A DNA stretch of 64,000 nucleotides, taken from Armatimonadota bacterium (GTDB lineage Bacteria > Sysuimicrobiota > Sysuimicrobiia > Sysuimicrobiales > Sysuimicrobiaceae). The stretch's first letter is position 1; the number at the start of each line of letters is the position of its first letter. Below the pieces are notes generated by a model. It did no database searches and was not told where the DNA came from. It worked only from the letters and a program-made list of their open reading frames with translations. Shown here one piece after another: positions 1 to 18,790 of this stretch. Position numbers and translations under genes: made by a program. The stretch lies in NCBI GenBank assembly GCA_025059775.1, contig JANXCW010000003.1:80284-144283 (forward strand), in the 5' to 3' direction.

Positions 1-1
1 A

Positions 2-292
2 AACGGATGGCGGACCTTCTGGGGTGTGGTGGCGCGGCTGGTGTGGCCCTCCGTGGCGGTGGGTTGGATCCTCAGCTTCGTGCTCATCGTGCGGGAGGTG
101 AGTGCCTCCATCATGCTGGCCGCTCCAGGGGCCCAGGTGCTCTCCGTGAGCATCGTGTACCTGTGGGGACAGGGAAGGCTGGAGGAGGTGTGTGTGGTGG
201 CGGTGCTCATGCTCGTGCCGGTTTTCCTCGGGAGGTACTTGGTGGGGCGACTGCAGCGGGCCGAGCTGCAGCGCGGGAGCGCCGGAGGATAG
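2..292 (+). CDS. ABC transporter permease, C-terminal fragment (5' end outside window)
   Basis: Frame-2 ORF ends TAG 290-292. Hydrophobic C-terminal segment typical of binding-protein-dependent permease tails. A strong RBS for the next gene follows immediately. Confidence 0.5.
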   Translation, partial: NGWRTFWGVVARLVWPSVAVGWILSFVLIVREVSASIMLAAPGAQVLSVSIVYLWGQGRLEEVCVVAVLMLVPVFLGRYLVGRLQRAELQRGSAGG

Positions 293-303
293 GAGGTGAG
301 GAG

Positions 304-1989
304 ATGCGCGGCACGGAGACGGGGCAGGTGAGGGCTGCGTACGCCTTGCTGGGGGTTCTGCGAGCCCGGGGCGTGCGGTTCCTCTTCGGCCTGCCGGGCA
401 GCACGGAGGCTGCGGTGCTGGATGCCCTGCGGGAGGTGCCGGACATCCGGTACGTGCTGGCCCTGCAGGAGGGGATCGCGGTGGCCATGGCGGACGGATA
501 CGCCCGGGCGAGTGGAGGTGTGAGCGTGGTGAACCTGCACACCACGGTGGGGACCCTGGGGGGCTTGAGCCTGCTGTACAACGCGTGGCGGGATCGGGTT
601 CCCGTGGTGGTCCTGGCGTGCCACAAGGACACCCGGATCTTGGGACGCGGCGGGTTCACCACGCTTCCGGACACCACGGCCCTGGTACGTCCCCTGACGA
701 AGTGGGCGCACCAGACCCTGAATCCGGAGCAGGTGGCGGAAGATGTGGAACGGGCCTTCCAGCAGGCCCTGGCCTGGCCTCGGGGCCCCGCGTACGTGAT
801 CGTGCCCGAGAACCTGCTCGCCGCGCCGGTCTCCGTGGATCCTCCACGTCCTGCGCCCCTTCCGTTCCCTTCCCGCCCGCACCCGGAGGCGGTACGGGAG
901 ATCGTGGGGCATCTGAGCCGGTCGGAGCGGGCCGTGCTCGTGGTGGGGACGGAGGTGGCGCGCCGGGGGGCGGTGGAGCACGCGGTGCAGCTCGCGCATG
1001 CGCTGGAACTTCCCGTCCTGTGGGAGTCGCGGCGCACCCTGCTCGAGCCCTCGTATCCCGTGGAGGATCCGCACTTCGTGGGGATCTACGATCCCAGGCA
1101 CCCCGCGGTGGCGGAAGCGGAGGTACTGCTGGTGGTGGGAGCGATCCTGTTCGTGGAGTTCGCCCCCGCTCCTGCTCAGGAGGTCCCGCCTCGGGCTTTC
1201 CTCATCCATGTGCACCCCGATGCCGGGGAACTGGGCCGTCTGTATCCGCCGAATCTGGCGGTCCAGGCGGACGTGGGGCTGCTGTTGCGGGACCTGGTGG
1301 AGGCGGGGCGTTTGGAACGCTCCTCCCTGGAGGACCGCAGGGCCTCCCGGAGGAGGTGGGTGGCGGAGTTGCGGGCCCGGTGGGAAGCGCAGCGGGCGGA
1401 GCAGCGCCGCCGGGAAGCCGGGATGCGGCCCCTCACGGCGTTCCAGGTGGGCGAGGTCCTAGGCCGGGTCCTCCCCCAGGAGGCGGTGGTGGTGGAGGAA
1501 GCCGTCCGCTCATGCTGGGCGTTTCTGGCGGGATTTCCCGTGCGCTTGGGCGGGCTGTTCCGGACAGCCGGGGGGTCGCTCGGGTGGGGAGTCCCGGCGG
1601 CCCTGGGGGCGCAGATGGCACTGGGGGATCGGCCGGTGGTGGCCGTGGTAGGGGACGGAAGCCTGCACTTCACTCCTCAAGCCCTGTGGACGGGGGTCCA
1701 GCAACGCCTACCGGTGCTGGTGGTGGTTCTCAACAACCGCAAATACCTCGCGGTGGAGGTCGGGGTCCGGGAGCTCCTGAGGACCTCGGAGTCCCTCCCT
1801 GGACTTCCCGGCATCGAGCTTCCGGGCCTCGATCATGCGACCGTGGCCCGGGGATACGGCGCGGGGGGGGTTCGAGTGGAGGAGCCGGGTACCCTCGGGG
1901 ATGTGGTGGGTGATGCCTTTCGGAAGGCCCGGGAGGAGGGACGGCCATACCTCGTGGACGTGCCCATCCGGGAGGAGTGGGGAAGGTAG
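304..1989 (+). CDS. Thiamine-pyrophosphate-dependent enzyme (acetolactate synthase large subunit / benzoylformate decarboxylase family)
   Basis: ATG 304 preceded by GGAGGATAGGAGGTGAGGAG. N-terminal TPP-enzyme Pyr domain (GLPGSTEAAVLDAL...), central domain and C-terminal GDGS..N TPP-binding motif (VVGDGSLHFT...VVVLNN). The 7..1989 ORF is an upstream extension of this frame. Confidence 0.85.
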   Translation: MRGTETGQVRAAYALLGVLRARGVRFLFGLPGSTEAAVLDALREVPDIRYVLALQEGIAVAMADGYARASGGVSVVNLHTTVGTLGGLSLLYNAWRDRVPVVVLACHKDTRILGRGGFTTLPDTTALVRPLTKWAHQTLNPEQVAEDVERAFQQALAWPRGPAYVIVPENLLAAPVSVDPPRPAPLPFPSRPHPEAVREIVGHLSRSERAVLVVGTEVARRGAVEHAVQLAHALELPVLWESRRTLLEPSYPVEDPHFVGIYDPRHPAVAEAEVLLVVGAILFVEFAPAPAQEVPPRAFLIHVHPDAGELGRLYPPNLAVQADVGLLLRDLVEAGRLERSSLEDRRASRRRWVAELRARWEAQRAEQRRREAGMRPLTAFQVGEVLGRVLPQEAVVVEEAVRSCWAFLAGFPVRLGGLFRTAGGSLGWGVPAALGAQMALGDRPVVAVVGDGSLHFTPQALWTGVQQRLPVLVVVLNNRKYLAVEVGVRELLRTSESLPGLPGIELPGLDHATVARGYGAGGVRVEEPGTLGDVVGDAFRKAREEGRPYLVDVPIREEWGR

Positions 1990-2385
1990 CGAATGGCTTG
2001 CCCTTCCCCGGACGGTGAACCGGAAAAGCCCCCTGGCCACGTATCCGTCATCCGCGGAGACCGCGACCCACCGGACCGTGTAGGTTCCCGGGGCCAGACG
2101 CCGCACCCGGACCATGAGACTCCGCCGATCCAGGTCCTCCAGGTCCACGCCACCCCGGGCAACTAGGCGTCCCCGCGGATCCAGGACCTCGATCCGACTC
2201 CTGGAGGGATCTAGCTCCTCGTTGAACCAGGCGCGGACCACGGAAGGGGGAATGAAGAGCACGGCCCCATTCTGAGGGGTCGACCCCACCAATCGGGCGT
2301 GGGCGGACAGCGGGAGATGGTAGACTCCCACCAGCAGCAGGAGGAAAAGAGCTCGTCCGATTCCCTTCCTGATCGGTTCGCTCAC
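1708..2385 (-). CDS. CopC-domain copper-binding protein with a low-complexity C-terminal extension
   Basis: GTG start overlaps the TGA of the upstream gene (GTGA). N-terminal hydrophobic signal, then CopC hallmarks (HARLVGSTPQNGAVL ... YTVRWVAVSADDGY..GLFRFTV). The last ~100 aa are P/G/R-rich and overlap the 3' end of the convergent TPP gene. Confidence 0.6.
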   Translation of the reverse strand: MSEPIRKGIGRALFLLLLVGVYHLPLSAHARLVGSTPQNGAVLFIPPSVVRAWFNEELDPSRSRIEVLDPRGRLVARGGVDLEDLDRRSLMVRVRRLAPGTYTVRWVAVSADDGYVARGLFRFTVRGRASHSLPSPLLPDGHVHEVWPSLLPGLPKGITHHIPEGTRLLHSNPPRAVSPGHGRMIEARKLDAGKSREGLRGPQELPDPDLHREVFAVVENHHQHR

Positions 2386-4235
2386 GGGGACAGCAGCAGG
2401 AGGGCGTCGCTCACGGGGCGCTCTCCCGTCTCATCGGATGGCCGGTTCCACACCCGGCCGTGGACCACGAGGGTGGTGGAGCCGCCGCCATCGAGGTTCA
2501 AGGCTTCTACGGCACCCAACCGCCGCATCTCCGCGGCGAGCTCTGGAATGGTCATCCCCAGGCTGTGCTCGGGGGCGCGCCCGTCCACCACGAGGAGGAT
2601 CACGGTACCGTCCGGATCCACCCCGATCGCGGTCCGCGGATGCCTCCGGTAGAGGAACGCCTCCGGAAACCCTTCCGGATCCGGTACCGGTTGGCCCCGT
2701 CTCAGCAGCCTCGGACCTCCGCACAGGATGTCCCGTACCTGTTGCCAGCGGGGATCTCCGGAGGAGGGCTCCGCGCGAATCCGCACGTGCACGGGATCCC
2801 CGACTCGGAGTCTGGCGAGCAACGCCCCGGGAGCCCCGTGACCGGAGAGGACAAATCCGTCAGGGGGGACCCAGGCCGGCGGCGCCTCTCGGACCTCCTG
2901 GACCATCCCCCCAGAAACCACCACCTCCACACCCCTCACCTGGACCCGGGGGGTTCCGCCGAACCGGGGGGTAAACAGCACCACCTCACCGGATCCCCGC
3001 GTGCGGTTGAGTCCTTGGATCGGGATGGTTGCCCAAGCGGTCACCGCTTCCGCCCTCCACTCCAGCGTGTCGAACACCACCTCCTGCGTGTCCGTGATCC
3101 CGAGGCACGAACGGCCGGGGAGGGGTTCGCTCGCCCATTCCCTTTGGATCATCACCCCTCCCACCGGATCTCCCTCCGGAGCGAAGTACCCGCCGTTCAC
3201 CGCGGCCACGGCTCCGGATCGCTGCGCGATGGCGGAGGTTCGCTCCCGCCCCATTACCCGGTCCTGGGCAAGGGCCACCCGAAGCCTTCCGCTTCCCCTC
3301 GTGATCCGGAGGGTGGCCGTCCACTGGGGTCCGGGCAGGGAGTCGAAGTCACGCAGGGTGGAGATGACCCACGTAGGATAGCCTTCCTCCGCGAGACGGG
3401 TACGAAGGAATTCCGCCTCCACCCGGCTCCCAAACGACCCCACCCGCACCTTCGCGAGCCCGTCGAGGAGGTCCACGAAAACGGGAAGTCCCCGCTTCCG
3501 GATCTCCTGGGCCAGACGGTGAGCGTTCTGGAGGGACGCAAAAGCCCCCACCTGCACCCGCCAGACGGGCAGCGTCCGCAACGCTCCCCGTTTCTCCACC
3601 GTCAGCAGCACGCCGGGGCGAAGGAGGTGCAGTACGCGCAGACGGGTGCCGTTCTCCAGGGCCTGGAGTAGGGTCCAGATCAGGAAGGCTCCTTCCGTCC
3701 GGCTGACGTGGGCCAGGGGGCGGAACCTGCGGGAGGAGGGGTCTGGGAGGAGGGAGGGACGGCTGAGGAGGGCTACCGCTACTGCTCCTCGGTAGGAGGG
3801 AGAGATCCGATCGAGATCCTCGAACGGGAGCGGATGGTCCGCGAGGGCGGCGGCCTCCCACGCGTGTCCCAGGGCCCGCACCGTCCACAGGATCGCGTCC
3901 TGTCGGGTAAGGGGGGCGTGCGGCCGGAACAGCCCCTGCACGTTGAGGATTCCGTGAGCCAGGGCCGCGTGCACGAAGGGCGCCATCTCCCGAGGCACGT
4001 CCGGGAGCGGTGTGCGGACTCCGGAATCCAGCGGCAGGCCCTTCGCGCGCACCAGCCACCGCACGTACTCTCCCCGCAGCACGGGGCGGAGGTGCTTCTC
4101 CTCGGCGGATTCCAGAATCCCGCGCTCCGCGAGGAGGGCCAGAGGATCCCCGGTCCGGAGGGATTTCTCCGTCGGCCCCGGGAAGGAACCCGTCCCAAGC
4201 GCAATGGCCAACGCGAGCGCCACGGGAATCCGCAT
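2382..4235 (-). CDS. SLH-domain / SPOR-domain phosphodiester glycosidase family protein (cell-wall anchored)
   Basis: Signal peptide, three SLH-like repeats (..FVHAALAHGILNVQGLFRPHAPLTRQDAILW..; FEDLDRISPSYRGAVAVALL), a SPOR-like segment (RVQVGAFASLQNAHRLAQEIRKRGLPVFV..VRVGSFGSRVEAEFLR) and a C-terminal phosphodiester-glycosidase/NAGPA motif (ALNLDGGGSTTLVV). Confidence 0.8.
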   Translation of the reverse strand: MRIPVALALAIALGTGSFPGPTEKSLRTGDPLALLAERGILESAEEKHLRPVLRGEYVRWLVRAKGLPLDSGVRTPLPDVPREMAPFVHAALAHGILNVQGLFRPHAPLTRQDAILWTVRALGHAWEAAALADHPLPFEDLDRISPSYRGAVAVALLSRPSLLPDPSSRRFRPLAHVSRTEGAFLIWTLLQALENGTRLRVLHLLRPGVLLTVEKRGALRTLPVWRVQVGAFASLQNAHRLAQEIRKRGLPVFVDLLDGLAKVRVGSFGSRVEAEFLRTRLAEEGYPTWVISTLRDFDSLPGPQWTATLRITRGSGRLRVALAQDRVMGRERTSAIAQRSGAVAAVNGGYFAPEGDPVGGVMIQREWASEPLPGRSCLGITDTQEVVFDTLEWRAEAVTAWATIPIQGLNRTRGSGEVVLFTPRFGGTPRVQVRGVEVVVSGGMVQEVREAPPAWVPPDGFVLSGHGAPGALLARLRVGDPVHVRIRAEPSSGDPRWQQVRDILCGGPRLLRRGQPVPDPEGFPEAFLYRRHPRTAIGVDPDGTVILLVVDGRAPEHSLGMTIPELAAEMRRLGAVEALNLDGGGSTTLVVHGRVWNRPSDETGERPVSDALLLLSP

Positions 4236-4239
4236 CAGG

Positions 4240-4815
4240 CTAACGGAGCTCCAGGGACTCTACGCGAAGTTCAAGTTCCTCGAGTACAACGCGGAGTTCG
4301 TAGTGGCCTATGGGAACCTGGGAGAAGGCGAACTGCCCGAGGTCGTCCAGGGGAGCCGAGAAGGAGAACGAGGCCGAGGAGAGGATCACCTCTCCTCGAG
4401 GAGGGGTCCTGTACCCTCCGAGGATTCCGAACACGGATCTGCAAGCGGGATCTCGGGGGTCTCCGGCCACCTCCAGGGTGAGCGTGTATCCCTCTTCCGC
4501 GTATGCGGCTCGGGAGGGGGACGTTTCTCCCCGGAAGGCGAAGGCAGGGGGAAGGGAGGGGATCGGGCGAAGCAGAAGGATTCGACGCCCGAGCTGGGGG
4601 ACGCCCGTTGCCAACAGAGCGTCCAGCCACCGGAGCTCCTCCCGGCAGTAGGGGCAGACGGTCAGGTGGTCCGGGATCTCCGGAGCCTCAAGGAGGCCGA
4701 GACGCCACTCCCCCAACCGCTCCGGGGGAGGGCAGTGGAGACGGTACAGCCGTCGGTGGAGGGTGTCCTCCAGGGGATCCGGGGGGTGGGCAGGTTGCGC
4801 CGGACGCTCCGACAT
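4240..4815 (-). CDS. Putative zinc-finger (zf-HC2 / ZAS-type) anti-sigma-factor-like protein
   Basis: ATG at 4815..4813, 4 nt upstream of the SLH gene start. Contains the H-x3-C-x2-C motif (DHLTVCPYCREELRWL) characteristic of zinc-binding anti-sigma factors. The rest has no recognisable domain. Confidence 0.55.
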   Translation of the reverse strand: MSERPAQPAHPPDPLEDTLHRRLYRLHCPPPERLGEWRLGLLEAPEIPDHLTVCPYCREELRWLDALLATGVPQLGRRILLLRPIPSLPPAFAFRGETSPSRAAYAEEGYTLTLEVAGDPRDPACRSVFGILGGYRTPPRGEVILSSASFSFSAPLDDLGQFAFSQVPIGHYELRVVLEELELRVESLELR

Positions 4816-4941
4816 AAATCCCCCAATCGAGACAAATGGTTTTCGATTGCCTATTCGAACTCAATGAGCGGGATCCTGCGAACCTGGCAAGGAAGTTGCT
4901 GGAATTCCGACAGCGGATCTGGAAAACATTTGATCGCATTA

Positions 4942-4962
4942 TTGCACGGTTTAACCGTGCAA
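4942..4962. promoter_or_regulatory. 21-bp near-perfect palindrome TTGCACGGTT-T-AACCGTGCAA (candidate operator)
   Basis: Seen directly in an AT-rich divergent intergenic region between the minus-strand operon (start 4815) and the XRE regulator gene. 10-bp arms around one central base. Confidence 0.45.
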
Positions 4963-5008
4963 ATTTCTCGGTCTAATTCGATGTACTGTCAGGTAAAGTT
5001 AGCCATTT

Positions 5009-5017
5009 TGATAGAAT
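5009..5017 (+). promoter_or_regulatory. Extended -10-like element TGATAGAAT upstream of the XRE regulator gene
   Basis: TG-n-TAGAAT lies ~20 nt upstream of the GAGGAGGGG RBS. No good -35 is seen. The AT-rich context fits a promoter. Confidence 0.3.
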
Positions 5018-5037
5018 AGATCGTGAGGAGGGGATGG

Positions 5038-5607
5038 ATGGGCCGGCTGGTGGCGGAGGTTCTGCGCACGTTCGGATTACGGGTTTACGAGGCCCGCACG
5101 GCCGCGGGGCTCTCGCAGCGGGCGCTGGCGAGGCTGCTGGGCTTGCGGAGCGCGGTAGCGGTGGGAGACTGGGAACGGGGTAAGGCCTTCCCCAAGTTCC
5201 TCACCTTCCTTCGCTTGTGTGAGGTCCTCAACCGGCCCCCGGCGTATTTTCTGGAGGGCTATACGGAAGCCCCCGCTCAGGAGGGGACCGTGGAGGCGCT
5301 GGAGCGCCTGGAGGCGAAGCTGCACCAGCGTCATCTGGAGCTCCTCCACCGGCTGGAGCAGTTGCCCGCGGAAATCAGTGGGTGCATACCTCCCGACGAA
5401 ATCCTCTCCTTCCTGCAGAAGATGGACTTCGAGCGGGATGTGCTCCCACACCTCCCCCTCGACCTCCGCGCCGCCCTTCGGGCCCGGAAGCTTCCCCCCG
5501 AATTCGAGGAGGCCGCTTACAGCATCGCCCGCAACGCCGCCTGGCATGCCTGGGAGGTGACCCGTGAGGAGGTTCGGGATTGGGTCCGGAAGCGGAGAAG
5601 GGTCTGA
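5038..5607 (+). CDS. XRE-family helix-turn-helix transcriptional regulator with uncharacterised C-terminal domain
   Basis: ATG 5038 after GAGGAGGGG. N-terminal HTH_XRE signature (RTAAGLSQRALARLLGLRSAVAVGDWERGKAFPKFLTFLRLCEVL). A GTG at 5023 is possible but has a worse RBS. Confidence 0.75.
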   Translation: MGRLVAEVLRTFGLRVYEARTAAGLSQRALARLLGLRSAVAVGDWERGKAFPKFLTFLRLCEVLNRPPAYFLEGYTEAPAQEGTVEALERLEAKLHQRHLELLHRLEQLPAEISGCIPPDEILSFLQKMDFERDVLPHLPLDLRAALRARKLPPEFEEAAYSIARNAAWHAWEVTREEVRDWVRKRRRV

Positions 5608-5697
5608 AAACCGTCAGCGGCTGCGCTTCCAAAGTGACCTCGGTCGGTTCCCCGGCCTCGACCCCTCTGGATCGCTTGCCGCTGACGGTTTTCTTTT
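5607..5697 (+). terminator. Long stem (15 bp) with structured loop and U-tract, candidate terminator for the XRE gene
   Basis: AAAACCGTCAGCGGC (5607-5621) pairs with GCCGCTGACGGTTTT (5678-5692) and is followed by CTTTT. The loop contains an internal GGTCGG/CCGGCC hairpin. Lies between convergent genes. Confidence 0.35.
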
Positions 5698-5700
5698 ACC

Positions 5701-5743
5701 ACGGATTTAAAGCAAAAAGCAATGGGGAACATATGTTCCCCAT
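5701..5743 (-). terminator. Rho-independent terminator of the minus-strand DUF402 gene
   Basis: 22-nt perfect palindrome ATGGGGAACATATGTTCCCCAT (5722-5743) directly after the DUF402 stop (5745-5747). On the minus strand it is followed by UGCUUUUUGCUUUAAAU. Confidence 0.55.
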
Positions 5744-5744
5744 C

Positions 5745-6239
5745 TCACCAGGCCCCCCTCTCTGCGGCGGAGAGCAGGCGGTGGGTGGCGGCGGTCACCT
5801 CCTTCACGATGGAGGGCCAGCGAGCAAGGATCTCCGCAAGCGCCTGCTGCGCCTGGACCCTCAGGGTTTCCGGGAGGGATCCCATCTCCTCCTCGTCCAG
5901 CACCTTCGGCTGTGCATTGGGCAGAACAAGCACGTCGGCTGCCAGGTCGAGCCAGGCGATCCGATCCGCCTCCAGCCGTACCTCCCCGCTCAGATTGATG
6001 TACCACCCCAGGGTTTCCCCGTGCGGTGTGACCCAGTGGTACACGTTGTACGGACGGTCCACCCAGAAATGGCCATAGGTGACCGTGCCGGGATCCAAGG
6101 ATAGGTCGTCCACCCGCCAGGGGTGCGTGATCACGTAACGGAGCACCACGCGGTCTGCGTCCCGGAGGAGGAGTTCGCACGGGAACACCTCCTCGCGGCC
6201 GTCCGGTCGCCGTTTGATCTCCAGGAACAGGACCCCCAT
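5745..6239 (-). CDS. DUF402-family protein (nucleoside di/triphosphatase-like fold)
   Basis: ORF 5745..6419, but the conserved part starts at the internal ATG at 6239 (MGVLFLEIKRRPDGREEVFP...). The upstream 60 codons are S/R/P-rich read-through, so I prefer the 6239 start. DUF402-like core (YGHFWVDRPYNVYHWVTPHGETLGWYINL). Confidence 0.65.
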   Translation of the reverse strand: MGVLFLEIKRRPDGREEVFPCELLLRDADRVVLRYVITHPWRVDDLSLDPGTVTYGHFWVDRPYNVYHWVTPHGETLGWYINLSGEVRLEADRIAWLDLAADVLVLPNAQPKVLDEEEMGSLPETLRVQAQQALAEILARWPSIVKEVTAATHRLLSAAERGAW

Positions 6240-6381
6240 GGCGCCGATCCCAGGGTCCCTTCGACGTCTCCTGCTCGAACTCCTAGTACAATGGGGGTAC
6301 CCGGAACGGTCTTGGGGCCTTTGGGGAACCCCGGGGCTTACCGGAGACGGCAGGGAAGGGATTCCTGAGCGGGAGTGCACG

Positions 6382-6945
6382 ATGAACATCGTCCTCACGG
6401 CCAAGAACGTGACGCTCAACGAGCATCTGCGCCAGTATGCAACGAAGAAAATCGAACGGCTGGCCCGGTTCTTTGACCACGTTCAGGAGGCAAAGGTGGT
6501 CCTCCGGACCAGCCGGGATCGCAACCAGGGACGCGAATCCCTCGTGGAGGTCACGGTGTACGGAGACGGTTTTGTGCTGCGGGGGGAGGAGGCCGCGCCG
6601 GACTTCTTCGCGGCCGTGGACCTGGTGTCCGAAAAACTGGAGCGGCAGATCCAGAAGGTACGGGACCGCTGGATCCACAAGCGCCGTCTGGACGAGGCCC
6701 GCCGGCGGCGCCAGGAGGAGGTGGAGGCGGAGGAGGCGCGAAGGGCCGAGGAGTTCCCGGAACCCCTTCCGCAGATCGTGCGCCGCAAGCAGCTCACCAC
6801 CAAACCCATGACGGAAGAGGAGGCCACCGTCCAGATGGAGCTGCTGGGCCACAGCTTCTTCGTGTACCGGGACGCGGACACGGGACACGTTCGGGTGCTG
6901 TACCGTCGGCGGGACGGGCAGCTGGGCCTCCTCGAGGTGGAATGA
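6382..6945 (+). CDS. hpf: Ribosome hibernation-promoting factor, long form
   Basis: MNIVLTAKNVTLNEHLRQYATKKIERLARFFDHVQEAKVVLRTS... (RaiA/HPF N-domain) plus the C-terminal dimerisation domain of long HPFs (TEEEATVQMELLGHSFFVYRDADTGHVRVLYRRRDGQLGLLE). GGGAG RBS 6 nt upstream. Confidence 0.9.
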   Translation: MNIVLTAKNVTLNEHLRQYATKKIERLARFFDHVQEAKVVLRTSRDRNQGRESLVEVTVYGDGFVLRGEEAAPDFFAAVDLVSEKLERQIQKVRDRWIHKRRLDEARRRRQEEVEAEEARRAEEFPEPLPQIVRRKQLTTKPMTEEEATVQMELLGHSFFVYRDADTGHVRVLYRRRDGQLGLLEVE

Positions 6946-7967
6946 GGCGGGTGGCGTGGGCCTGCGCATGGGCCGCGCTCCTCGCGGGGTGCGCGGTCCG
7001 GCCCGATCTCTCCCGCCTGCCTCCCCTGCGCCTGCGGGCGCCGGGGGATATGGTCCGGCAGGTGAAGCCGGGCTACACCCTCTCCGGGAGTCTAGTGACC
7101 GCCTGTGCCCCCACCCACGACGGACGGCTGGTGGGGGTGGTCGTGGACAACGACCCGCGCGCCCGGCCGCAGAGCGGACTGAGCTTCGCGTGCCTCCTCT
7201 ACGAGATCCCTACGGAGGCTCGGATTCCCCGCTTCCTCGCGGTGTTCAACGGCCAGGAACCGGCCCGTGTGGGACCCGTGCGCAGCGTGCGGCCCGCGTT
7301 CCTGGAGATCGCCCAGGAGCTGGATGCCGTGGTGGCCCACGCAGGGCAGAGCCTCCCCGCCTTCCAGTGGATCCGCGCCCACCGTTACCCCGTGGTCAAC
7401 GAGTTCTGGACTCCGCAGCCATTCTGGCGCAGCCGGGACCGGCGCATGCCCCACAACCTCTACGGAGCCGTTCCCCGGATCCGGGAGGTCATGCGGCGTC
7501 GGGGCTATGACCGTCCTCCCGTGCTTCCGCGGCCCGCTGCCCTCACCTACACGGAGCCTTACGGTCCCGCCGCGGGTCACATCCGGATCGGGGTTATGAA
7601 GGGGTTCCAGGCCGAGTTCGTCTACCAGGACGGCCGCTACCTCCGGACCACCGCGGGCCGGCCACATCTCGATGCCCTCACCGGGGCGCCGGTGTGGGCT
7701 CGGGCCGTGTTGGTCCAGTTCGTCACGTGGCGGGGGGGGCGGTCGGGGAGGGTGGACGTCTCGGAAGTCGGGGTGGTGGGACAGGGGAGGGCCCTGATCT
7801 TTGCCTACGGACGCGCGGTGGAGGGTCGATGGGAGAGAGCCTCCGAGGAAACTCCTACGGCGTTCACGGATTCCCAGGGCCGGGGCCTGTTGCTCCCGTC
7901 CGGCCCTCTCTGGGTGGTCCTTGTACCCCTCGGCACTCCGGTCACGTACGTCCCGAGAGGGCTCTGA
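6942..7967 (+). CDS. DUF3048-domain lipoprotein (YerB-like)
   Basis: ATGA overlap with the hpf stop. Lipobox LLAGC after a signal peptide. Body resembles DUF3048 proteins (..[36 protein letters not shown]..). Confidence 0.65.
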
Positions 7968-8016
7968 CGGAACCCCCGGCCTCATCCGGCGGTTTATACT
8001 GAAAGGGAGTGAGCCC

Positions 8017-10680
8017 ATGCTGAAGACTCTGGCGAGGCTGTTCGGGCGGGGAGAGGACGCGGCGGTGCGCCGCTACCTGCCTGCGGTGCAACGCATCAAC
8101 GGGCTGGAACCGGAGTTCGAGCGCCTCTCGGACGAGGCCCTGCGGGCCAAGACGGAGGAGTTCCGGACCCGCCTGCGCTCCGGCGAGACCCTGGATGATC
8201 TCCTCCCCGAGGCCTTTGCCGCGGTGCGGGAGGCCAGCAAGCGCACCCTCGGGCTCAGACACTTTGACGTCCAGCTCATCGGCGGCATCGTGCTGCACGA
8301 GGGCAAGGTGGCGGAGATGAAAACGGGGGAAGGGAAGACCCTGGTGGCCACCCTGCCCGTCTACCTCAACGCGCTTTTAGGCCGCGGGGTGCACGTGGTC
8401 ACCGTCAACGACTACCTGAGCCGCCGGGACGCGGGCTGGATGGGGCCCATCTACCATACCCTGGGGCTGCGGGTGGCGGCCATTGCGCATGAGTTCAGTG
8501 GCCTCTACGATCCCGCCTACCAGGACCCCAAGCCCCATGCGGACGACCGCCTGAACCACTTCCGTCCCATCTCCCGACGGGAGGCCTACCTGGCGGACGT
8601 CACCTACGGTACCAACAACGAGTTCGGATTCGACTACCTCCGGGACAACATGGCCCTGCGTCCAGAGGACATCGTGCAGCGGGAGCTCTACTACGCCATC
8701 GTGGACGAGGTGGACTTCATCCTCATCGACGAGGCCCGTACCCCCCTCATCATCTCCGGGCAGTTGGAGGAATCCACCCGCAAGTACTACGAGTTTGCAC
8801 GCTTGGTGCGTCGACTGCGCCTCGGTGAGGACTACACCGTGGACGAGAAGCTGAAGACCGCCACCCTCACGGAAGCGGGGATTCGGAAGGTGGAGCAGAT
8901 GCTGGGGGTGGACAACCTCACAGACCCGGAGCACCTGGACCTCATGCATCACGTCCACCAGGCCCTGCGGGCCCATGCCTGCTACAAGCGGGACGTGGAC
9001 TACGTGGTGAAGGATGGCCAGGTGATCATCGTGGACGAGTTCACGGGCCGGCTCATGTTCGGCCGGCGGTACGCGGATGGACTGCACCAGGCCATCGAGG
9101 CCAAGGAGGGCGTGCGGATCGAGCGGGAGACCCAGACCCTAGCTACCATCACCCTCCAGAACTACTTCCGCATGTACGAGAAGCTGGCGGGCATGACGGG
9201 GACCGCGAAGACGGAGGAGGAGGAGCTCCGAAAGATCTACGGTCTCGAGGTGGTGGTGATCCCTACCCACAAGCCCATGATCCGAGTGGATCTCCCGGAC
9301 CTGGTGTTCAAGACGGAGGCGGCCAAGTGGCGGGCCGTGGTGCAGGAGATCAAGGAGTGCTACCAGAAGGGCCGTCCCGTGCTGGTGGGGACCCGGTCCA
9401 TCGAGAAGAGCGAAATGCTGTCCCGGATGCTGCGTCAGGAGGGGGTTCCGCACCAGGTGCTCAACGCCAAGTACCACGAGAGGGAGGCGGAGATCATCGC
9501 CCAGGCCGGACGCCTGGGAGCCGTCACCATCGCCACCAATATGGCGGGCCGCGGGGTGGACATCCTCCTCGGCGGCAATCCCCCGGATCCGGAGGAAGCA
9601 GAGAAGGTCCGGCAGCTCGGGGGGCTGCACGTGATCGGCACGGAGCGACACGAGGCCCGGCGCATCGACAACCAGCTGCGAGGGCGCTCCGGCCGCCAGG
9701 GGGATCCCGGCAGCAGCCGGTTCTATGTCTCCGCGGAGGACGAGCTCCTGCGCCTGTTCGGAGGCGAACGCATCGCGGCCATCATGGATCGGTTCCGCAT
9801 CGACGAGGATACCCCTATCGAGAGCCCGTTGCTTACCCGACAGATTGAGGCGGCGCAGAAGCGGGTGGAGCAGTATCACTTCGACATCCGCAAGCACCTT
9901 CTGGAGTACGACGATGTGATGAACGTGCAGCGGCAGACCCTCTACCGGGAGCGCCGCAAGGTGCTCTTCGGCGAGAACCTCCGAGAGAACGTGCTGGACA
10001 TGATGGAGCGGGTCGTGGCGGAGGTGGTGGAGACCTACTGCCCCGCCTCCCTTCCCCGCGAGGAGTGGGATCTGGAGGGCATGCTCCAGGAGCTGGAGCA
10101 GCTGGCACCTGTTCCGGAGATCCTGGCCATTTCCCTCCAGGACCTGGCGGGCCGTTCCCGGGAGGAGACTCAGGAGATCCTCACCACAGCCGTGCTCCGG
10201 GCCTATGAAGCCAAGGAGGAGGCGGTGGGCCCGGAGGTGATGCGGGAGGTGGAGCGGATAGTACTCCTCTCCCACATCGATCGCAAGTGGATAGACCACC
10301 TGTATGCCATGGACGAGTTGCGGGAGGGGATCGGGCTAAGGGCCTACGGACAGGTAAGCCCGCTGGTGGAGTACCAGCGGGAGGCGTACGAGATGTTCCA
10401 GCAGATGCTGCGGGCCATCCAATCCGACACCGTCCGGGACCTCCTCCGGGTGCGGGTGGAGCGCGAGATCCCCCGCGTCCTCCGACCCGTGGCCCGCATT
10501 ACTGCCCAGGCGGGTCCGGACGCGGACCGCATCCTGGGAGCCCTCCCGGCCTCCACCGACCGCGCGGCGACTCCCCCCAAGCCCCAGCCTGTGGTGGTGG
10601 GGGCCAAGGTGGGGCGCAACGACCCCTGCCCCTGCGGCAGCGGTAAGAAATACAAGAAGTGCTGCGGCCGGGAATCCTGA
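8017..10680 (+). CDS. secA: Preprotein translocase ATPase SecA
   Basis: ATG 8017 after AAAGGGAGTGAG. Full-length SecA signatures throughout (Walker [31 protein letters not shown]). C-terminal zinc-binding [14 protein letters not shown] tail. Confidence 0.95.
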
Positions 10681-18545: not shown

Positions 18546-18548
18546 CGG

Positions 18549-18594
18549 GCCGGAGGCGTTTGACAGAGGAGGCCGGAGGCGTTTGACAGAGGAG
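18549..18594. repeat. Tandem 23-bp direct repeat x2 (GCCGGAGGCGTTTGACAGAGGAG), each copy containing TTGACA
   Basis: Two adjacent identical copies seen directly, right after the gltX stop and upstream of the tRNA genes. Confidence 0.8.
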
Positions 18595-18612
18595 GCGGAG
18601 TTCGGGAATAAT
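18583..18612 (+). promoter_or_regulatory. Sigma-A-type promoter for the tRNA-Gln/tRNA-Glu genes (-35 TTGACA, 18-nt spacer, -10 AATAAT)
   Basis: TTGACA at 18583-18588 (a second copy at 18560-18565 in the upstream repeat unit), AATAAT at 18607-18612, tRNA-Gln starts at 18626. Confidence 0.5.
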
Positions 18613-18625
18613 GATGGGCGGCCGG

Positions 18626-18699
18626 TGGGGGATCGTCTAACGGTAGGACAACGGGCTCTGGACCCGTTAGTGGAGGTTCGAATCCTCCTCCCCCAGCCA
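18626..18699 (+). tRNA. tRNA-Gln (anticodon CUG), CCA encoded
   Basis: Acceptor stem TGGGGGA/TCCCCCA, anticodon loop CTCTGGA (CTG), T-arm GGAGGTTCGAATCCTCC, discriminator G, then genomic CCA. Confidence 0.9.
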
Positions 18700-18714
18700 G
18701 CGGCAGCGGTGGGT

Positions 18715-18790
18715 GGCCCCATCGTCTAGAGGCCTAGGATACCGCCCTCTCAAGGCGGAGACGGGGATTCGAATTCCCCTGGGGCCACCA
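18715..18790 (+). tRNA. tRNA-Glu (anticodon CUC), CCA encoded
   Basis: Acceptor stem GGCCCCA/TGGGGCC, anticodon stem CCGCC/GGCGG with loop CTCTCAA (CTC), T-loop ATTCGAAT, discriminator A, then CCA. Confidence 0.9.

Follow-up and report, generated by a model that had tools for sequence, protein, structure and literature searches.

A lineage-specific four-gene block of a ZAS-like zinc-finger protein, an SLH-SPOR-NAGPA protein, a CopC-fold protein and a divergent XRE-type regulator in Ca. Sysuimicrobium-like bacteria

Four neighbouring genes in a 64-kb stretch of bacterial DNA (the window, which is the whole 64,000 nucleotides analysed) form a real, lineage-specific block in Ca. Sysuimicrobium-like CSP1-3 bacteria, and all are built of known domains. 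Three of them lie on the minus strand and encode a zinc-finger protein (gene 1, positions 4815-4240, 191 aa), an SLH-SPOR-NAGPA protein (gene 2, 4235-2382, 617 aa) and a CopC-fold protein (gene 3, 2385-1708, 225 aa); the fourth, divergent on the plus strand, encodes an XRE-family helix-turn-helix (HTH) regulator (5038-5607, 189 aa). The reading that we favour, with a probability of about 0.5, is that the trio is an operon under XRE control, the first product of which continues to act on an extracytoplasmic function (ECF)-like sigma factor encoded at an unlinked site. The window comes from a metagenome-assembled genome (MAG) of the CSP1-3/Sysuimicrobiota lineage ("Armatimonadota"), with Ca. Sysuimicrobium calidum as a close relative, and the gene 1 protein is 100% identical to NCBI N0A24_03065 of an "Armatimonadetes" MAG. 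The lineage is uncultivated and includes hot-spring members (PMC11604079).

An earlier note on this DNA, made from the letters alone, had described the trio as co-transcribed, its genes separated first by a 4-nt gap and then overlapping as GTGA, and both the open reading frame (ORF) list and the junction sequence agree with it. Between the TAG stop of gene 1 and the ATG of gene 2 stand the four letters 'cctg', and at the junction of genes 2 and 3 the sequence reads GTGA, the start codon GTG of the latter overlapping the stop codon TGA of the former. Such a gap and overlap suggest translational coupling, and the products of the three genes are probably co-expressed. All three genes display the codon-position GC pattern typical of real genes, in a region (the first 10 kb of the window) with a GC content of ~0.61-0.71.

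The XRE<->ZF-NAGPA-CopC block (ZF for the zinc-finger gene) was found to recur in about six related lineages, with the identities given here being those to the window proteins. At L001-L010 and L021 (ZF 66-77%, NAGPA 78-86%) the four genes lie in a fully syntenic 16-kb region; L011 (ZF 51%, NAGPA 66%) keeps the XRE, ZF and NAGPA genes with CopC absent; and L096/L097 (ZF 43%, NAGPA 63%) keep all four genes, followed downstream by those for a glyoxalase, a flavin reductase and HpaB. Because L096/L097 retain the four genes with changed downstream flanks, the block is more than regional synteny. At L098 (ZF 39%) the divergent XRE gene is kept and no NAGPA start occurs in the 142 nt before the contig end, while at L012-L014 NAGPA orthologues of the same SLH-SPOR-NAGPA architecture (49-55%) stand alone. 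A genome scan with a further ZF-family alignment returned two loci only. The earlier note had tied its proposal to a zf-HC2 match of gene 1 and to conservation of the triplet in related genomes; the window sequence gives no such match, but the trio is conserved, together with its divergent XRE gene.

One may object that this adjacency has no functional meaning, unrelated genes being kept together by shared ancestry and operon inertia in a narrow clade. Most trio loci are indeed fully syntenic over 16 kb, NAGPA orthologues occur alone elsewhere, CopC is dispensable in L011, and distant ZF relatives were seen beside NAGPA or CopC in 0 of 80 loci. We consider this explanation doubtful, as the block survives in L096/L097 at 43% ZF identity despite altered flanks, the 4-nt gap and GTGA overlap point to coupling, and a conserved motif is present upstream.

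The regulator gene was recognised by Pfam through HTH_3 (7.5e-09, 35.9 bits, cut-off 23) and HTH_31 (1e-08, 35.8 bits, cut-off 27), with ATG 5038 as its likely start (the ORF finder lists GTG 5023), and at L001-L011, L096 and L098, too, it is transcribed away from the ZF gene. Its orthologues (189-197 aa) are 87-97% identical, which makes it the most conserved gene of the neighbourhood, compared with 80-88% for HPF and 50-77% for ZF, the least conserved one. Across lineages in which the neighbouring genes are 50-86% identical, the XRE protein exceeds in conservation even the adjoining ribosome hibernation factor, and its C-terminal 110 aa match nothing in Pfam. The earlier note had correctly placed a divergent regulator upstream of gene 1 and counted it as a negative point, standing where a sigma gene might have been; this valuation did not hold, as gene 1 has in XRE its most persistent partner. 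The possibility that the XRE protein is a sigma factor in disguise was considered and rejected, since its similarity is at the HTH level only (E 0.022 to SigR; E 8.6 to the profile of the sigma-like family described below).

The intergenic region shared by the two transcription directions (4816-5037) is less GC-rich than its surroundings, and an alignment of five orthologous intergenic regions revealed conserved blocks in it. Among them is a conserved 15-nt motif, GCAACTTCCTTGCCA (4885-4899, minus strand), a candidate operator or promoter element that has no second copy in the window even when up to two mismatches are tolerated (0.12 expected). One exact copy of GCAAMTTCCYTGCCA lies upstream of ZF in 12 related loci, which are all the syntenic loci with an upstream region (L001-L004, L006-L011, L021 and L096), and none was found upstream of ZF in L098. 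A perfect 10+10 palindrome, TTGCACGGTT-A-AACCGTGCAA (4942-4962), survives only in part in the orthologous regions, its perfect form being specific to the window. Scanning of positions 1500-5300 for consensus sigma-70 promoters and terminators picked up a single terminator within gene 2, at chance level, and no promoter.

The earlier note had called gene 1 a ZAS-type anti-sigma-like protein on account of an H-x3-C-x2-C signature. The signature is present as H50, C54 and C57 (nt 4645-4668, minus strand), with C28 upstream (nt 4732-4734), and these four putative zinc ligands are invariant in the 4-, 8-, 32- and 64-sequence alignments; in the 64 diverse homologues the invariant residues are R25, C28, H50, C54, C57 and G96. 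The AlphaFold2 (AF2) model based on the 64-sequence alignment, with a predicted local distance difference test (pLDDT) score of 88.9, consists of four helices at aa 14-69 (nt 4609-4776), which correspond to the ZAS-like zinc-finger domain, a lower-confidence linker in which R95-G96 lies (nt 4528-4533), and a sandwich of nine strands that spans aa 101-190 (nt 4246-4515); it replaced an unusable run with four close homologues alone (pLDDT 43.5). Weak CarboxypepD_reg and EMC7 beta-sandwich matches were obtained by Pfam at aa 139-182. A hydrophobic (transmembrane) segment is missing from gene 1, and likewise from 61 of 64 relatives.

The anti-sigma affinity emerged at the level of the family. A word-index protein search returned four clusters only with gene 1 and 18 proteins only with its family profile, and an exhaustive profile search gave 1066 representatives at E <= 1e-3, of which 282 also reach E <= 1e-10; almost all have 185-265 aa and are matched over the full length. 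Pfam assigned zf-HC2 to 47 and CarboxypepD_reg to 24 of 64 family members; the sister proteins of gene 1 reach 16.9 bits on zf-HC2 versus a gathering score of 22.2, which is exceeded by the short members P0095 (24.5 bits) and P0077 (23.5 bits), with their matches sitting at the position homologous to the gene 1 motif. When 32 short family members were aligned by hhalign with five ZAS domains (RsrA, RshA, ChrR, RslA and RsiW, the sequences not being database copies), a match of 84.7% and E 6.7e-06 was obtained, in a register that places C28/H50/C54/C57 of gene 1 on C11/H37/C41/C44 of RsrA. Thus the search of the 191-aa protein that the earlier note had suggested was negative for zf-HC2 with the window sequence alone and positive at the family level, and it is at the latter level that the ZAS/zf-HC2-type assignment is upheld. 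Judged from this family-level homology, and not from a direct match, gene 1 encodes a soluble protein that combines a ZAS-like domain with a beta-sandwich. The motif is also the sole pointer to the redox or zinc sensing that gene 1 may perform.

Two further features of the family were observed. Members of ~240 aa (P0062-P0070, P0208-P0211) carry a second, more canonical N-terminal HxxxCxxC zf-HC2 finger, which matches the ZAS domains at 93.7% by hhalign, and those of ~190 aa, gene 1 included, have the inner finger only. Besides, R95-G96 is invariant across 64 relatives inside an otherwise variable linker; that it serves as a CHAT cleavage site is speculation.

The gene neighbourhoods of the family elsewhere indicate what its partners may be. 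At three distant loci, a family member was found 28-47 nt downstream of a gene for a 170-243-aa protein and upstream of one for a TPR-CHAT protein. This was extended to 80 distant ZF-family loci, most of them retrieved from metagenomes by a scan for LGEYHLG[LM]L and therefore representing one subfamily; counting the loci with enough DNA, 51 of 62 have a sigma-like ORF directly upstream on the same strand, and a TPR-CHAT homologue is located downstream on the same strand in 35 of 45. The upstream family gave weak Sigma70_r2 matches only (E 0.005-0.008) and non-significant PDB matches to ECF sigma2 domains, and its profile matched ECF sigmas (RpoE, SigW, SigR and AlgU, here too not database copies) at 87% and E 4e-06 over 152 columns, from sigma2 through sigma4. 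The norm of the family is therefore an ECF-like sigma, then a zinc-finger/sandwich protein, then a TPR-CHAT protein.

Such cassettes of an ECF-like sigma, a zf-HC2/beta-sandwich protein and a TPR-CHAT protein were observed in other phyla (L015-L020 and L022-L095, e.g. L015:5242-9540), with a sigma that is invisible to Pfam and a logic like that of Csx29/Csx30/CASP-sigma without CRISPR genes. A shared ECF-type promoter was looked for upstream of the sigma-like genes, and no common motif was found. A sigma-70-like TTGnnn-N17-TGCTATACT precedes the sigma-like gene at eight loci of soil metagenomes (L063, L065, L069, L071, L073, L077, L083 and L085); being of the housekeeping type, with a TTG-type -35 and the extended -10 TGCTATACT, it suggests that the sigma-like gene is not autoregulated at those loci. 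In the literature searched, neither the sigma/zf-sandwich/TPR-CHAT context of the family nor the arrangement in the window was found; all parts are of known kinds, and the window arrangement and the wider cassette context are new to this analysis.

Gene 2 has a signal-peptide-like N-terminus (nt 4179-4235, minus strand as all its features) followed by three SLH-like repeats (nt 3648-4178), a SPOR domain (aa 225-291, nt 3363-3563; Pfam 47.5 bits, cut-off 21, 2.3e-12), which also matches the CwlC SPOR structure 1X60, and a NAGPA domain (PF09992; aa 435-614, nt 2394-2933; 151.3 bits, cut-off 25, 3.9e-44). SLH repeat 2 passes Pfam at 26.5 bits, and repeats 1 and 3 match it by hhalign (96.3% and 92.6%) with no Pfam match alone, so the architecture of three SLH repeats, SPOR and phosphodiester glycosidase given in the earlier note was confirmed. 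NAGPA enzymes cleave the glycosidic bond of GlcNAc-1-phosphodiesters, and we know of no bacterial substrate for this enzyme class. Solved relatives of gene 2 are 6OZD, 5H3K, 3OHG and vertebrate NAGPA; its DGGGS motif (aa 582-586, nt 2478-2492), within ALNLDGGGSTT at about aa 577-587, aligns to 'nldgggs' of 6OZD. DGGGS is described as invariant and as carrying the catalytic Asp (PMC13474241). Hence gene 2 is predicted to be a secreted, wall-associated enzyme whose NAGPA domain has an intact catalytic motif, and by analogy it could cleave GlcNAc-1-phosphodiester linkages of wall glycopolymers. The fusion of NAGPA to SLH and SPOR indicates a wall-bound, septum-directed enzyme. The SLH-SPOR-NAGPA architecture is common in this phylum (~50 clusters).

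The conserved core of gene 3 (2005-2385, minus strand) comprises a signal peptide and a CopC-fold domain, which was matched by Pfam at aa 29-125 (62.9 bits, cut-off 23.3, E 5.8e-17) and by PDB 5ICU at 5e-09. The predicted mature N-terminus is His29. We take the canonical Cu(II) ligand set, as in 5ICU, to be the N-terminal His, the Asp and the His of D-x-H/DGH; in the 5ICU alignment gene 3 keeps the N-terminal His and the Asp, and its DDGY replaces the canonical DGH, with the second His turned to Tyr. Tyr is kept at this position in all clade members, with Asp in L096. Gene 3 has a single Met and therefore no Met-rich Cu(I) site, and it falls below the NCBIfam CopC/YobA equivalog cut-offs (55 vs 95 bits; 33.9 vs 129 bits). 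Copper binding is doubtful because of the lost Cu(II) ligand, the one Met and these sub-cut-off scores: of the 'CopC copper chaperone-like' label in the earlier note, the CopC fold stands and the copper chaperone is doubtful.

The 3' part of the gene 3 ORF (1708-2004, minus strand) is an unconserved extension, antisense to the end of a convergent thiamine pyrophosphate (TPP)-enzyme gene (7-1989, plus strand, a 660-aa ORF as listed), which the ORF overlaps by ~280 nt with a tail of ~100 codons. Orthologues of gene 3 were called at 114-199 aa; those in L001, L002 and L096 end right after FRFTV, and the others have tails of differing length and frame. With no Pfam match to it either, the tail is read-through and not a conserved domain. 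It looks like a His-rich, unconserved extension that arose when an ancestral stop was lost in GC-rich DNA. A metal-binding role of the His-rich tail was considered and rejected, as it is unconserved and antisense to the TPP gene. The TPP-enzyme ORF itself is ~100 codons longer than its 558-561-aa orthologues, and its true start is probably near nt 310-320. In L012, a copper cluster (CopC, CopD, cytochrome c, CopC and a CopC-CopD fusion; L012:11050-13908) is located ~3 kb downstream of the solitary NAGPA gene, with a transposase and a YibE_F gene between the two; it may be what is left of an earlier linkage between NAGPA and copper genes, or a coincidence.

Put together, a mechanism can be proposed for the block. 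The XRE protein would control the shared intergenic region via the conserved GCAACTTCCTTGCCA element; gene 1 would bind zinc and sequester a protein partner, the likeliest candidate being an unlinked ECF-like sigma such as its relatives in other phyla have beside them; gene 2 would be held at the wall by its three SLH repeats and SPOR domain, and its glycosidase may trim or release phosphodiester-linked wall glycopolymers at the septum. The earlier note had stated that no ECF sigma gene adjoins gene 1, and none was found in the 64-kb window either; nor was a sigma gene found in the syntenic neighbourhoods. The positions that the sigma and CHAT genes hold in the cassette are held in the window by XRE and NAGPA. 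The label 'orphan' in the earlier note is thus correct locally, and it is meaningful because the family elsewhere sits beside a sigma-like gene. The invariance of R95-G96 and of the family signature suggests that the ancestral partners are still used.

Several results weigh against an XRE-controlled operon whose first product acts on a distant sigma. Neither phmmer searches with three ECF sigmas (not database copies) nor the profile of the sigma-like family detected an ECF sigma or a member of that family in the 64 kb, and the window ORFs include no CHAT homologue either; as the sigma search covered these 64 kb, the unlinked partner is an assumption. Pfam and NCBIfam, run on the gene 1 sequence alone, gave no zf-HC2 or anti-sigma match, and the ZAS and ECF references behind the family-level matches are not database copies. 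A NAGPA homologue occurs in 0 of 80 distant ZF-family loci, and so does a CopC homologue. Nearer to the window, CopC is absent in L011, the NAGPA orthologues of L012-L014 have no ZF or CopC neighbour, and L098 has no NAGPA start within 142 nt downstream of ZF. Furthermore, no bacterial NAGPA substrate was found in the literature searched, and the envelope-stress or wall-remodelling reading is hypothetical, with no mechanistic link from a cytoplasmic zinc-finger protein to a secreted enzyme. Of the 'envelope-stress or wall-remodelling module' put forward in the earlier note, the block is real and conserved, and a joint function is hypothetical, CopC being lost in L011 and NAGPA standing alone elsewhere.

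The same observations could be read as re-purposing of the ZF protein into an anti-repressor or co-regulator of XRE, the two forming a two-component switch for the wall-enzyme operon. The XRE<->ZF pairing is the most persistent one, shown by all relatives examined, even at a ZF identity of 39% (L098), where NAGPA does not come directly after ZF; XRE is 87-97% identical while ZF evolves fastest (50-77%); and the 64 kb contain no sigma-like gene. Yet no ZAS domain is known to us to bind an XRE protein, and R95-G96 and the family signature are as invariant here as in the sigma/CHAT-linked relatives, so that such re-purposing appears unlikely to us. That gene 1 is a generic Cys/His zinc-ribbon-like protein, its HxxxCxxC resembling ZAS by chance, would fit the failure of Pfam, NCBIfam and the PDB profile search to give a match and the return of generic beta-sandwiches only from fold searches, but is highly improbable given the family-level zf-HC2 matches, the four-ligand register with RsrA and the position of relatives directly downstream of an ECF-like sigma gene.

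No CRISPR or defence genes are present at the window locus, the PADLOC scan giving no defence-system match apart from generic HTH matches, and the Rfam scan of positions 1-9000 at a lax threshold produced chance-level matches only. Further along, a 23-nt unit with TTGACA inside is tandemly repeated in 2.3 copies (GGCCGGAGGCGTTTGACAGAGGA) at 18548-18600, just upstream of a tRNA-Gln/tRNA-Glu pair (18626-18790), and may be a duplicated promoter element.

The locus overturns nothing, all of its domains being known. A large 'hypothetical' family would gain a name and a role, as soluble zinc-finger anti-sigma candidates, and the cassette may explain ECF groups reported with "no anti-sigma" but with 'carboxypeptidase' and CHAT neighbours. 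Tentatively, ZF-family proteins might be the anti-sigmas of ECF-like sigmas that Pfam does not detect, under the control of TPR-CHAT proteases that maybe cut at Arg-Gly, with the protein in the window uncoupled from them and brought into an XRE-governed wall operon. If true, such a system would be the counterpart of the Csx29-Csx30-sigma switch that works without CRISPR, and in the Sysuimicrobium clade cell-wall remodelling would be tied to a proteolytic sigma switch. The window also offers a natural case of a ZF-family protein parted from its usual partners and joined to a wall-anchored NAGPA enzyme.

Compared with known systems, each product of the trio has clear counterparts and departs from them in specific ways. 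Like the ZAS anti-sigmas (RsrA/RshA, ChrR, RslA and RsiW; PF13490), gene 1 carries a C-x21-H-x3-C-x2-C tetrad in the RsrA register, and like RsrA it is soluble, with an N-terminal domain that is helical in the AF2 model; unlike the ZAS anti-sigmas, it has no adjacent sigma gene, its C-terminus is a CarboxypepD_reg-like beta-sandwich instead of a membrane anchor, a cupin or a bare tail, and its own sequence is below Pfam detection. Gene 2 keeps the DGGGS loop with the catalytic Asp of the NAGPA/DUF2233 proteins (the human uncovering enzyme; 3OHG, 6OZD and 5H3K), but is fused to three SLH repeats and SPOR. Gene 3 shares the fold, the signal peptide, the N-terminal His and the Asp with CopC proteins (5ICU, 6NFQ and the YcnJ N-domain 9C14), but has Tyr for the second His, no Met-rich site and no CopD partner.

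For the family as a whole, the counterparts are sigma switches that involve CHAT proteases. In DdvA-DdvS, the anti-sigma DdvA itself bears the CHAT domain (PMC11506125), whereas CHAT is a separate gene in the ZF-family cassette. ECF54, whose gene context is given as 'carboxypeptidase, subtilase, CHAT' with no recognised anti-sigma (PMC8999054), recalls the sigma-like/ZF/CHAT cassette and is a lead only, likened by the description of its gene context. In type III-E CRISPR, the TPR-CHAT protease Csx29 cleaves Csx30, an inhibitor of the ECF-like CASP-sigma (PMC10028731). Csx30 has no sequence relation to the gene 1 family, and the window locus differs from both Csx29-Csx30 and DdvA-DdvS in having neither a sigma nor a CHAT gene; the ZF-family cassette would nevertheless follow the same logic as Csx29-Csx30-CASP-sigma, that of a CHAT protease acting on a sigma inhibitor.

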